From assembly GCA_020137815.1 (NCBI GenBank), contig CM035359.1:1488001-1552000 (forward strand): a stretch of DNA of 64,000 bases, read 5' to 3'. The notes under the pieces are model-generated. The model searched no databases, was not told the DNA's origin, and saw nothing but the letters and a program-made list of their open reading frames with translations. Made by a program: the position numbers and the translations under genes. Source of the DNA: Hormiphora californensis (Eukaryota; Animalia; Ctenophora). Positions 28,501-34,500 of the stretch are shown here, piece by piece (position 1 is the stretch's first letter; each line of letters begins with the position of its first letter).

Positions 28501-31500
28501 ACCTATTATTCCCGGTAAAAAATGATAGGGTAGTGACCGGCTATTTGAAATGGCGGCTAATTTGAAACAACCCCTCTACTTTCTACAGGCCAGCGCCCAG
28601 CAGGTGCACCAAATTGGGATTTTTAGACATCAGTGGGCTTAACATGAGTTCTGACTAGCCCACTGATGTCTAAAAATCCAAATCTGGTGCATCTGCTGGC
28701 CTGTAGGGGGCGTTTTAAATTAGCCGCCATTTCAAATAGCGCCAGTCGCCACCCTACAGCTCTTTGAATAGCCGCTAAGTGACCTGTTCACCCAATAATG
28801 TACATACCGTTAACTCCACGAGCAAATCAAGTCCTGACACTAGTGATTTCTGAAGTCCCGGTGCAGTTTTTAGGAGTTGAGAGTTGAGGGAGGTGAGTAC
28901 AGGGTTGAGGGTGTCCGCCACAACTTTAGTTGAATCAAGTACCGCTCCTGGGTGCGGAGGAGAGGAGGAGTCAGGAGGTTTAAATTGAATACGAAACATT
29001 AATTAGTTATATTAATAGTAAATAGAATCATTGGAATTACGAAACTAGGCCAATAATATTGACAGTACTCCACGCTGAACACATAAACTATTTATCCTTA
29101 CAATTATACTGACAATTAACTAAATTTTACCCCGAGGAACGAATATAGCCTTGGTAATGAAATTACCCCTCACGCAAGCTCACGGAGTAACAATTCGTAA
29201 TACCTCCAGTTTACCCTGAACTATTTCTCCTTACCGAAACAAGTAAACAACCAATCAGAACTCGTTATTTAGGTCACGTGACTGGTTATCAGCCAACCAG
29301 GGACCAGTATTTCCTGATTCGGTCGGTTCCTGGTCCTTACCTTTGATTGCACAGCAGGGTATATGGTCCCTGAACACTACCCCACACACAGCAGCCACCA
29401 AGAGAAGGAAGAGAATGAAGAGTTTTGAAAGTATTGAGGAGGAGGAGGATTCGGGATCTTTGTGTGACGTTACTGCCTTGGAAGTCTTGTTACCCTGCGG
29501 AAACAGAGACATGTGTTAAATGGGTAATAAATGGGGAGTGGGTTGGGCACGTCGTCCAAGGGAGTGGGAACTGTAAAGTTTGATTGGGAATAAAAATATA
29601 TTTCACCCGCAAGCCGTGCAAATCATATAAATAATGATGCCCACCAGACTTTAGTACAGGAACCGACCGAATCAGGAAATACTGGTCCCTGATTGGCTGA
29701 TAACCAGTCACGTGACCTAAATAACGAGTTCTGATTGGTTGTTTACTTGTTTCGGTCGGTTCCTGCTATAGTGTGAATTCAAGTACCGTTTTGTGTCCAG
29801 CATCCTCTTTAGACTGTTTAACATCAGAATTAGCTGCTGATGCCTCGTACTCGGCTCTCCTCCTTGCTTTCTCCGCTGCCTTCTCCTCTAGCTTGATCTT
29901 TCTTCTCTCCATATTTTCAAGCTCTTCAAGCCGTTTTAGTTCTCTTTTTAGTGCTTCCTTTTTCGCTAGAGAGAGAGGGGAGAGAGAGAGAGAGAGAGAG
30001 AGAGAGAGAGAGAGAGAGAGAGAGAGAGAGAGAGAGAGAGAGAGAGAGAGAGAGGAGAGAGAGAGAGAGAGAGAGAGAGAGAGAGAGAGAGAGAGAGAGA
30101 GAGAGAGAGAAAGAGAATTATGGTGGGAGGAGAGAGGGAGTGATCAGGGGGATAGAGGGAGACAGTGTCATGCAGTGGGCCGATTATCCAGGTAGCTTAG
30201 CTAGTTAGGTAAGCTGGCACATGTTTCTCGTTATCTCTATTACATCTAAAGTAGACATCGCTCAACTAACAAAAAACTCTATCTCAACCTCTATCTCAAC
30301 CAATAAAACTCTATCTCAACCTCTATCTCAACCAATAAAACTCTATCTCAACCTCTATCTCAACCAATAAAACTCTATATCAACCTCTATCTCAACCAAT
30401 AAAAACTTTATCTTGACATCTTGTAACAGCTAAATCGTCTACATGTGCGCTGCCTGAAATTTCTTGCCGTAGCCCTTATAACTCTCAGTTTGACACAGGA
30501 ACCGACCGAATCAGGGAATACTGGTCCTTGATTGGCCGATAACCAGTCACGTGACCTAAATAACGAGTTCTGATTGGTTGTTTACTTGTTTCGGTCGGTT
30601 CCTGGTTTGACACATACCATTCTCCTTGTTTTAGAAATGATTCCTCGGCTGCTACTTCTGTTATTTCTACAGTCACTAGCCACAACTGCTTCGGATGGAC
30701 AACTCCTATCAATTTCGAGTGCAACGGCAAGGACTTATAACCCATCTGATCCACCGGAACGAGCTATAGACGGGGACCTTAAGACAATCTTCCACACTAG
30801 CATCCCGCCAGAATCAGTATCACCAAAATGGTTGAAACTACAATTGGAAGAACCTGCTTTGGTGTCACGAGTTGTCATAGTTAACAGGTAGGAGCAATAG
30901 TGATTTAAAATAGTCATGGAGAATTCTTTACGAACTGATTTCAATATCTCCTTCTGCTAGCTACGCCCTCTGTACGATATATGAACGAGTATTTAATTCT
31001 TACTCAGATCTCATTATTCAGAATTTTTTATTTTTCATACTTTCCGCAGGCGTGTCAATTCTGTTTTTGATAGCGTTACCCAGCGGTTACTTGGTACCCA
31101 TGTCTATTTGTACGATGCTGATGGTACGACACAGATTGCTGACTGCGGCAAGATCACCAAAGTCGATATAGAGAACAAGAACGACCTCGCTTCTCAAACC
31201 TACACGCTGCCTTGTAACTCCTCCCAGTTGGCTTCTTATGTCAAAGTGAGAGTGTTACTAATTACTAAGAGAGAAAAAAGAGAGATCATTACATTAACTA
31301 AGGGGAGAACTTCAACTAAAATGAGAATGGATCGACACAAAATTGGACAAGATTGTTTTAGGTAGTAGAAAATAGTTCTCTGAGCATTTTGCCTTTTTCC
31401 CGTGATTGAGGGGTCAATTTTGAGCGGGAAAAGGCAAAATGCTCAGATAACTATTCTCTAAGTTACCTAAAACAATCTTGTCTAATTCTGTGTCGGTCCA

Positions 31501-34500
31501 CTCTCAATTTAGTTGAAGTTCTCCCCTTAGTTAATGTAATGATCTATCTTTTTCTCTTTTAGTAATTAGTAACGATCTCACTTTTAGTTGGAAGATTCCG
31601 AAATGGAAGAGACCGATGCAAAGAAGAATCGTCTTATTATGAATATCGCGGAGGTCATGGTATATGGAACGCTTAGTTCTTCGAACTATGGTAAGTTGCA
31701 GGAACCGACCGAATCAGGAAATACTGGTCCCTGATTGGCTGATAACCAGTCACGTGACCTAGATAACGAGTTCTGATTGGTTGTTTATTTGTTTCGGTCG
31801 GTTCCTGGTAAGTTGGAGAAGACTACTACTCAACAAATGAGACAGATATTTCTTGTTATATCGGTAGATTTACCACAGAACCTGACAAAACCACCACAAA
31901 ACATGTCTGTAGTCTGTACTAGGGACGCATATGCTTTGAGGGGAAGCATATGGGTTGCTAAGGGATGTCGGGGACTGACCAGGCACGAATAGAGAGGAAA
32001 AGAGGTATAGTGGGTAGGAAGACATGTAAGTCAAAAGAGTTACGTAGTGACCAGTAGCAGACAAGTATGTAGCAATCGTAGGTGCTAGAGCCTAGATGTG
32101 GGATAAGAAAGAGAGTAAAAGACAGTTAGTCAAGATCCTTGTTCTCCTTTACATCAAGTTCATTTACTCTTAACTTTTTGATTACCTCTCAAGGTATCCG
32201 TTAACCTCAAAGTTAGATTATGAATTAAATTGAGACACATTTTTGTATAAGTTGCTTCTTGAATTAAGCGTTTTCATACAAATCGCTCTACCCTCTAGCA
32301 TTTTTTAAAGTAGGGAGAATTACGGGCAATAATATCAACCATGATAACTAACTAATCTTGTGTGACACCTCTTGCAACTTATATTCTGCCAGGCCCACTT
32401 GTCTTGAGTGGGAATGCATCGGTCATCCTTCTATTCAACATGCATTTTCAACTAGAAAATTGTTTCACATACATCTATTAAACAACTATAACAGGAGTTT
32501 TTCAAGCGTACAAGTTCAGCCTCTCCCCTTTTGGCGGAATTTAACGCCATATCTAGAAACTATCTGATACACACAAATATCCACTACATTACAGGTACAC
32601 CATTTGGGGCAAAACTAAAAAAATGCCGTATTATATTGTTAAAGTCGATTTTGGAATGTATTTTTGTGCATCATTATTTATAAAGAGGGGGCGGGTTGAA
32701 TACAAGTACAAAGTCTGATATTCCATGTCTTTGCAGTTACGACACTGTCCTTCTATGCACGTACCTTTCAGGAACGGATGGCAATTCAGGGGGAATAACT
32801 CGTTATCTTTCCCTCTGAACTTCCACAGTTCTAGTTTTCAATCAGTCATGTCTTGACCTCAGATTATTCATCATCCCATCCAATGTCGGCTTTTTTCCGA
32901 GAGGGGTCAGTGGTCACCCCCCCCCCCTTCTCGTGCACCCGAATTTTTAGTGTGCCTAATGTTCAGTGCTGCTTGTAGTCGTGTTACCGTAATGGAAATA
33001 CAGTAATGAGACACGCACGTTGCATAACGCACGGCAAAAGGTGCATGTGTTCAGCACGTACTAGCGCCCCGATTGGCCACGGTTGCGTGTCGTATTACTG
33101 TATCTCCGTTTTCCATTACCGTTTTCCCACTACAAGCGACCGTGTTATCATATCATATGTTACCGTGTGGTGTGCACATGAATACCACATACAGTACACG
33201 TGAGTTTGGGGTAACAACTTCAAAAAAAAATCGACTTTATAAAGTCGAGTTTTTAGCCAATAGTTAGTGATGGAAAGAGGGGGGGGGGGATTAATACTGA
33301 AATCATCCAAAGTTCTTGATTTTTCCAGTCGTCCTTAAGTTTTCCCAGACATCTCTCCTTTTCTATTCGACGATAAGTCCTTAGTCAGGAAAAATGTCAT
33401 GGCAAGAGTCAGTATATATTGCTTTCTCTCTCTTTTCTCTCTTGGAACTTTCCCAGCAGTCTTCGTAGCTTCCAATTCTTTCCCACCCTTTACCTCCAGA
33501 TCATCTCTATCTCTATCTCCATTGCTTGCTCTATCCCTCGAGAGAGCGATACAATAAAATTGAAACTATTTCAGGGGTTCTTCAGGGTGTTCTATTTGTA
33601 TCAAAATCTAACTAGAACATTCATTTGTAATAATATGGACAATTGAGACTCGTTAGATGTCAGAGTCAATAAATTCTGGAATATAATGATTATTTTGCCA
33701 CACATCATCTTTCCTATCATATCCCCGAAGCTCTCCTTTTCCTCTATTGAGATCGCTCTTCTTTTCTCTGTCTTTCACAAACACGTCTGGCAGATCTCCT
33801 TTTCATTGTAAGCTCAGTTTAGAAACACTTGCTTTTATTTTCTCTCTCTCCGCCCAAACATACAAAAACACTCAAGATGTTTAAACTTGCGACATTCGTT
33901 TTTGTGTTCGCACTTGCCTCGCCAGAAAACGGTAAGTTAAACCAACTAAAACCAACTAAAACCAACTCCACAATCCTCCTTCCCAAACCAATATTCTTGT
34001 CAGTAGTTTGCAAACTGACGACCACTTCCATACCGCTTTCCTACGTACCAACTACTGGATTTGGCAATGTCACCGCTGGAGACACTCTCTACTTGTACTG
34101 TGGAGAGGATGGATGGAAAGAACAGGTTGTAACTTGTGACCAGGAGACCGAGACTTCGGATTGTGGAGGAAAATCAAAACCAGCAACGTTTACAGGTAAA
34201 CACTATTTCCAAATCCAAGTTCCTTCCTTGTGAAACATTAACGAAATGAATAGTTACACAGATTTAGGAAGTATTTCGTATTGTTTATCACCGAATATCT
34301 CAACTGATCATGACCATGATAGTTCTCACATGCTCCGTTATTTGAAGAAATGAGAACATGGTCAGGCTAATTATGCTCTGACAGCACAAACCCTATCAAG
34401 CAAAAACCGAATATCTCACATTATCTAGGAAGAACAGAACTTCTGGTGTTGTTTCTAGACCAGACAATAACTCAACCACAATGTCAATCCTACTGTTCCG

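Follow-up and report, generated by a model that had tools for sequence, protein, structure and literature searches.

Introduction

In introners such as IE1 of Micromonas pusilla and those of Chrysochromulina sp., a non-autonomous DNA element brings the 5′ splice site GT while its target site duplication (TSD) is co-opted as the AG, leaving mRNA length unchanged, as described in passages of Gozashti et al. (2022; PMC9860276) and of a review (PMC11282704). These papers require at least four similar introns, lying in non-paralogous genes, before a set counts as an introner family, and the review states that reports of single transposon-derived introns come from numerous eukaryotes and calls such introns widespread (PMC11282704). 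Here, we describe a 338-nt palindromic element in exon 2 of a lectin-like gene of the ctenophore Hormiphora californensis, found in a 64,000-nt stretch of its genome (assembly GCA_020137815.1, contig CM035359.1, positions 1,488,001 to 1,552,000; hereafter the window, in whose coordinates all positions are given). From its sequence and that of its relatives, we put at roughly 70% the probability that splicing takes out this entire palindrome, within a new spliceosomal intron of 342 nt, from the transcript of a working gene.

There are precedents for GT-AG introns that are palindromic over their whole length. In the 2025 paper by Gozashti et al. (PMC12130899), supplementary file 8 uses the word "palindromic" 30 times, and the 21 rows from which we took taxa place introners derived from DNA transposons with terminal inverted repeats (TIRs) in dinoflagellates, fungi and a cryptomonad; none of these rows is from an animal, and a search of 12 of the paper's 14 files found no ctenophore name. 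In the same material, Symbiodinium microadriaticum fam4 is listed with a TSD of 4 bp and with matches to the termini of Kolobok_T2; four Symbiodinium rows carry hits to Kolobok termini, and none of them is finally classed as Kolobok. In animals, introner-type gains are uncommon: among 835 animal and land-plant genomes, they were reported in two animal groups (Gozashti et al., 2022; PMC9860276). In the parts of that survey used here, Mnemiopsis is scored 0, Pleurobrachia bachei is named nowhere but in the download list, with zeros in the last count columns, and unannotated genomes were filtered out; we read this as P. bachei having been dropped. Ctenophores are barely surveyed for introners, and a literature search at the level of titles and the beginnings of abstracts returned no Kolobok-derived intron and no transposon-derived intron from a ctenophore.

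The palindromic element coincides with a predicted intron

The element (31245–31582, AGTGAGA...TCTCACT) coincides at both ends with the proposed intron (31246–31587; 342 nt, GTGAG...TTTAG, phase 0). Its first base is the last A of exon 2, and its last base is followed by the putative right TSD, TTTA (31583–31586), which together with a host G at 31587 would form a TTTAG acceptor just beyond the palindromic arms. The putative left TSD, TCAA (31241–31244), would be TTAA with one silent change, so that each flank stands one change from TTAA. The arms of 31245–31582 align with each other at 142 matching positions, with 14 mismatches and 2 indels, and the predicted minimum free energy of the RNA is −236.8 kcal/mol, against −84.7 ± 4.8 for shuffled sequences, none of which (0/100) was equally stable. 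A first-pass annotation of the window had described the 342-nt intron as a single palindromic element plus TTTAG, a description that the coordinates, the arm alignment and the stability of the fold all bear out. Rfam returned no matches over 30500–32000.

By its sequence, the element is compound, with an inner unit set within distinct outer arms. The left outer arm (31245–31319, plus strand), made of two degenerate units of ~36 nt, would supply the GTGAG donor at 31246; the inner unit (31320–31508, 189 nt) is flanked by CTAA and TTAG; and the right outer arm (31509–31582, plus strand) carries branch-like motifs and two competing acceptors, at 31562 and 31569. The outer arms are identical at 70/75 positions and the inner arms at 72/83. 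At 7 of 9 inner-arm differences, one arm carries the consensus base of a relative at 39105–39573 (see below), which suggests that the inner arms decayed by ~4–5% per arm from a symmetric ancestor.

The host gene lies on the plus strand. Its predicted exon 1 (30637–30887) encodes a signal-peptide-like start and the first part of an F5/8 type C domain, and is followed by intron 1 (30888–31049, GTAGG...CCGCAG), exon 2 (31050–31245), which ends in the codons GTC AAA, the proposed intron 2, and exon 3 (31588–31691, LEDSE...MNIAEVMVYG). The joined exons form a 183-codon frame with zero stops and zero frameshifts, and its 183-residue product would consist of the signal-peptide-like start and the F5/8 type C domain. 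The gene had been labeled an F-type lectin. The domain itself, with its galactose-binding fold, is recognized by Pfam (PF00754/PF22633), for which paralogue P0002 scores above the cut-off and exon 1 alone below it (E 6e-6); the solved structures nearest P0002 are domains in bacterial hyaluronidase, O-GlcNAcase and sialidase entries. The fucose-binding motif of F-type lectins, which we take to be H..RxD..R, was not found in the host protein, which reads H...R-V-N, the Asp being missing here and in most paralogues; the label is therefore loose, and we call the gene lectin-like. Named relatives come only from P. bachei, with 7 matches among 222 candidates at 61–71% identity, and a second search with the host protein gave 15 P. 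bachei matches among 96 candidates. The family has at least 10 members in P. bachei.

Paralogues read through the insertion site

Evidence that the element entered an exon comes from 12 open reading frames (ORFs) on ENA metagenome contigs, obtained by protein searches with length limits. Three of them (P0015 and P0016, for example) cover exon 1 only, ending or diverging after VVIVNR, where intron 1 begins in the window. All nine ORFs that span the site of intron 2 read through it uninterrupted, and four of these (P0010, P0011, P0013 and P0021) begin with intron-1 residues ahead of the junction Arg and are therefore genomic, their reading having started inside intron 1. On these sequences, intron 1 is common to the paralogues and intron 2 is missing from them. 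Since every spanning ORF reads through and four are genomic, the site of intron 2 appears to be a lineage-specific insertion into an exon, and we regard it as near certain from the comparison that a palindromic element inserted into exon sequence, as first proposed. The comparison ORFs are paralogues and include no strict orthologue; in their tree, 1 of 16 inner branches is supported, which allows neither an orthologue to be named nor an order of events to be read. A query that included the read-through of the element gave 14 matches, none of which carried it. We had also considered C-terminal read-through into G-K or G-R, seen in 8/9 ENA ORFs, as a sign of genomic origin, and dropped it since GK is likewise the ending of P0002, a named protein of P. 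bachei.

The paralogues also bear on the codon next to the junction. In an alignment that left out P0001, P0017 and P0018, and in which P0015 and P0016 end before the column, the Lys column reads K in 13 of 18 rows and R, M, E, T and Q once each. All five substitutions lie one step from AAG, and Met cannot be reached in one step from AAA, which supports AAG as the ancestral codon and AAA as its later form. This agrees with the earlier proposal that splicing restores V-K-L with AAG turned into AAA, the predicted spliced product reading YVKLEDSE.

Splice signals and a proposed mechanism

Near the ends of the element we found 13 in-frame, stop-free GT/AG pairs, of which only 31246/31587 yields YVKLEDSE, the paralogue consensus, without gain or loss of a residue. 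Left unspliced, the frame would run for 39 codons of the element before reaching a stop, at the loss of two conserved strands, LEDS and MNIAEV..YG. A neighboring leucine-rich repeat (LRR) gene likewise has GTGAG as the donor that follows its exon 1. Branch-like motifs lie 15 and 22 nt upstream of the proposed acceptor, and 23 and 28 nt upstream of the internal acceptor at 31562. The internal AGs fall within the predicted stem and the terminal AG outside the palindrome arms, so that the hairpin may favor the terminal acceptor.

These features suggest how the intron could have arisen. Insertion at a target reading GT-TAAG-TTG would have duplicated TTAA. The first A of the element would then have stayed in the exon in place of the host G, changing AAG silently to AAA, with the next bases, GTGAG, becoming the donor, while the right TSD and the host G would have provided an acceptor that later improved from AAG to TAG. 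Finally, the long RNA stem would likely mask the stronger internal acceptor at 31562 and leave only the terminal AG unpaired; because the donor and the branch candidates are also paired, this would require the splice sites to be committed co-transcriptionally or after the base of the stem opens. Insertion followed by splicing would leave mRNA length unchanged, and the G-to-A change, silent in an NTT-AAG frame, would give R-to-K or S-to-N in a TTA-AGN frame. As in the introners of Micromonas and Chrysochromulina, a non-autonomous DNA element would bring the GT and a TSD the AG (parts of PMC9860276). In contrast to these, one terminal base of the element would stay exonic in place of a host G, the final G of the acceptor would be host sequence beyond the TSD, and the target would be fixed as TTAA(G).

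The first-pass annotation went further and held that the element would splice in either orientation at any exonic TTAAG. We find this doubtful: the mirror orientation carries the same internal acceptor ~25 nt inside its end, with upstream pyrimidines at 15/15 positions (14/15 in the present orientation), and a fresh copy at TTAAG would offer only an AAG acceptor.

Relatives of the element point to a probable Kolobok-type transposon

A related palindrome lies at 39105–39573 (39101–39577 with its flanks), inserted in intron 1 of the minus-strand LRR gene and not itself an intron. It has AG...CT ends and intact TTAA on both sides, as previously noted, and its homology to the intron element is limited to the inner 189-nt unit (78–84% over 86–111 nt) and to terminal bases: its ends match those of the outer 75-nt arms at 10/10 positions on the left and over 7 bases (AGTGAGA) on the right. 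Since the outer arms share just these bases with it, we infer rather than observe a TTAA target for the outer ends of the compound element. On the left, the intron element starts with AGTGAGAGTG, a 10-mer that both termini of the 39105 element share without a difference and that occurs four times in the window. Allowing up to 2 mismatches, the 14-mer TTAAAGTGAGAGTG occurs 4 times against 0.88 expected, a count that 0/100 shuffles reached; these four do not include the intron element's right outer end. The outer arm has one further, degraded relative at 7971–8043 (plus strand; nhmmer E 0.0023, blastn E 0.05–0.2), which has neither a partner arm nor TTAA beside it. The 39105 element also lies 13–14 nt upstream of the acceptor of LRR-gene intron 1 (39088–39105, minus strand), and because it inserted so close to the acceptor, the branch point of that intron must now derive from the end of the element or its TTAA flank.

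Kolobok elements are defined by TTAA TSDs and 5′ RR..YY termini (sections of PMC9587614), and in the pages of PMC6004289 used here Xenopus Kolobok TIRs start with AG, one of them with AGTGA; both sources agree with the earlier statement that TTAA with purine-purine starts is a Kolobok hallmark. AG...CT termini are present at 31245/31582 and at 39105/39573. The flanks are intact TTAA for the 39105 element and TCAA and TTTA for the intron element. From these features, the intron element is likely a non-autonomous Kolobok-type DNA transposon, that is, a miniature inverted-repeat transposable element (MITE). A piggyBac-type MITE, with TTAA TSDs and termini other than RR..YY, does not fit the AG..CT ends, a contrast drawn from PMC9587614. 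Like Kolobok and the Xenopus T2-MITEs, as portrayed in the portions of PMC9587614 and PMC6004289 we drew on, the element has RR...YY ends and TIRs that start with AG, and its target may also have been TTAA; unlike them, it has imperfect outer TSDs, and no autonomous DDD/E Kolobok transposase was found among the long window ORFs scanned (two reverse-transcriptase ORFs, a UDP-glycosyltransferase and a zinc finger). In those portions, Kolobok and T2-MITEs are not presented as introns, and the quoted host list does not include ctenophores.

A second TTAA-flanked palindrome in the window (16683–17962, 1.28 kb), with arms 98.7% identical and GG...CC ends, is probably a young Kolobok-type MITE. For the original target of the outer ends, TTAA is the preferred reading, because Kolobok is characterized by TTAA together with RR..YY, Xenopus Kolobok TIRs start with AG and the 16683–17962 palindrome is also flanked by TTAA. 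Neither this palindrome nor the one at 39105–39573 has a G after its TSD. Wider scans found little: with a gapped core motif, 7 loci came up in metagenomes, each a chance match to the seed only, no locus came up in viral contigs, a genome-contig scan gave a single weak match to a bacterial domain, and the 39-aa read-through of the element in one frame gave, against 1.84 billion representative proteins, one match to an unrelated repeat protein.

The nested anatomy raises the question of whether the intron arose in two steps, with an intron or a small element in place first and the inner 189-nt MITE inserted later, or the arms extended by fold-back copying, so that the present palindrome would not itself have created the intron. 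Such a history would account for an inner unit that alone matches the 39105 element and has CTAA/TTAG flanks of its own, for outer arms that are more alike than the inner ones, and for an outer-arm relative at 7971 that has no TTAA. We nevertheless consider it very unlikely. The outer left end matches the terminus of the 39105 element at 10/10 positions, the paralogues have no intron at the site, and the inner flanks are mirror images, not a direct repeat, a pattern that a preformed compound element fits better than insertion on site. Even under this history, an AG..CT-ended palindrome would have made the intron.

Splicing or loss of the gene copy

The strongest case against removal of the whole palindrome as an intron is that its insertion crippled or killed this gene copy, a loss that would be tolerable for one of many paralogues, given the family's size in P. 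bachei. The element would then be retained, or spliced to an internal acceptor with a premature stop as the outcome, and the fit of the GT and AG would be incidental. We judge this unlikely, and several observations weigh toward it or otherwise against the intron that we propose. The internal acceptor at 31562 is strong, with 14/15 upstream pyrimidines against 10/15 at the proposed acceptor, and use of 31562 or 31569 would place TAA directly behind the codon for Lys. The predicted stem of −237 kcal/mol takes in the donor and every branch candidate. No RNA junction was seen: X1, with a copy 95–98% similar, has contigs over 30780–31188 that keep intron 1 and end short of the junction, none of the X2 contigs falls on the lectin-like gene, and both are uninformative either way on intron-2 splicing. 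The next donor, after exon 3, is itself occupied by another MITE. Paralogous ORFs interrupted at the site would be short and possibly under-sampled by the length limits of our searches. As to the target, both putative TSDs deviate from TTAA (2 changes in 8 bases), a TCAA target would equally need two changes and a TSD-less insertion one, and, of the two relatives, the TTAA-flanked one matches the inner unit only and the sole outer-arm one (7971–8043) has no TTAA flank.

The state of the coding sequence speaks on both sides. In the planned test of selection, which was negative, 10/95 conserved columns differ from the family consensus, five of them in the signal region, against a neutral mean of 9.0 at 4.5% decay (P 0.71), as neutral decay would predict; an intact frame was found in 4–36% of neutral simulations. 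Against loss of the gene, 183 codons have remained without a stop or frameshift while the arms of the element took up 14 substitutions and 2 indels, exon 3 keeps 13/13 conserved columns, and both TSD changes are harmless or favorable, one falling in a silent third position and the other turning the acceptor from AAG into TAG. Private changes in the mature domain are also few: in a post hoc test, 87 conserved columns held 2 such changes, where decay of 4.5% would lead one to expect 7.2 (P 0.02), a contrast that fades with decay set to 3% (4.9 expected, P 0.12) or to 2% (3.2 expected, P 0.37). Support from these sequences for selection on the lectin-like gene is weak.

Genomic surroundings of the lectin-like gene

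The lectin-like gene sits between exons of the minus-strand LRR gene, probably within one of its introns. This LRR and coiled-coil gene (39914–29769), which we presume to resemble LRRC59, has exons at 39914–39807, 39087–39028, ~38440–38360 and ~29930–29769, and apparently hosts the lectin-like gene antisense in an intron. A ~108-nt CAGG...CCTG MITE with 8-bp TSDs, presumably hAT-like, has 11 matches in the window (31699–31806, and at 6827, 9845, 10691, 22447, 29233, 29658, 30497, 39711, 53620 and 60430); at 31699, insertion of the MITE duplicated GTAAGTTG, which is the donor after lectin-like exon 3.

Fold-back elements are unusually dense in the window. Three further near-perfect palindromes of 1.2–1.8 kb, from different families, lie at 21134–22351, 34601–36165 and 46297–48080, and a UDP-glycosyltransferase ORF of 510 codons (23151–24680, minus strand) lies within a 4.6-kb inverted duplication (23104–27757) whose outer 953 nt are 97% identical. 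Two long, intact LINE-like reverse-transcriptase ORFs are also present, one of 900 codons at 2906–5605 (plus strand), which has an endonuclease domain as well, and one of 872 codons at 43696–46311 (minus strand). An exact 300-nt duplicate (53686–53985 and 60497–60796), noisy GA tracts at ~58700–62400 and a 100-N gap (54406–54505) hint that the assembly is faulty toward the end of the window, at a distance from the lectin-like gene.

Discussion

Only one intron of this element type was found in the window. By its sequence, the transposon-made intron that we propose is a one-off and, because the arms of the element differ by ~9%, a fairly old gain. A single such intron stands against the at least four similar introns that the introner papers cited first ask of a family. 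The present evidence supports the class of single transposon-derived introns, from which, as that class is presented in the part of the review used here (PMC11282704), our case shows essentially no difference, both being one-off exonic insertions turned into introns. What it would add is an extension of a known mechanism, as a single event, to a new phylum, the ctenophores, and probably to a new transposon superfamily.

A bolder possibility, to which we give little credence, is a recurrent Kolobok-type introner family in the source ctenophore. A TTAA-specific palindromic MITE would then make introns out of TTAAG sites in exons, each time for the price of a single G-to-A change, its own hairpin would select the terminal acceptor, and the excised double-stranded RNA of ~165 bp could feed small-RNA silencing of the family. 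The suggestion of silencing draws solely on Mnemiopsis, in which endo-siRNAs have been reported whose multi-mapping clusters tend to lie on transposons (sections of PMC6211395).

The locus, with its empty-site control, illustrates how a transposon with a fixed target, TTAA, may make an intron silently, and offers a testable example in which a long hairpin would enclose the splice junction and an internal acceptor would compete. If a recurrent family does exist, ctenophores would have in it their first introner family, and animals one of few, with fully predictable target sites, and the significance of the present case would be considerably greater were that family to recur genome-wide.

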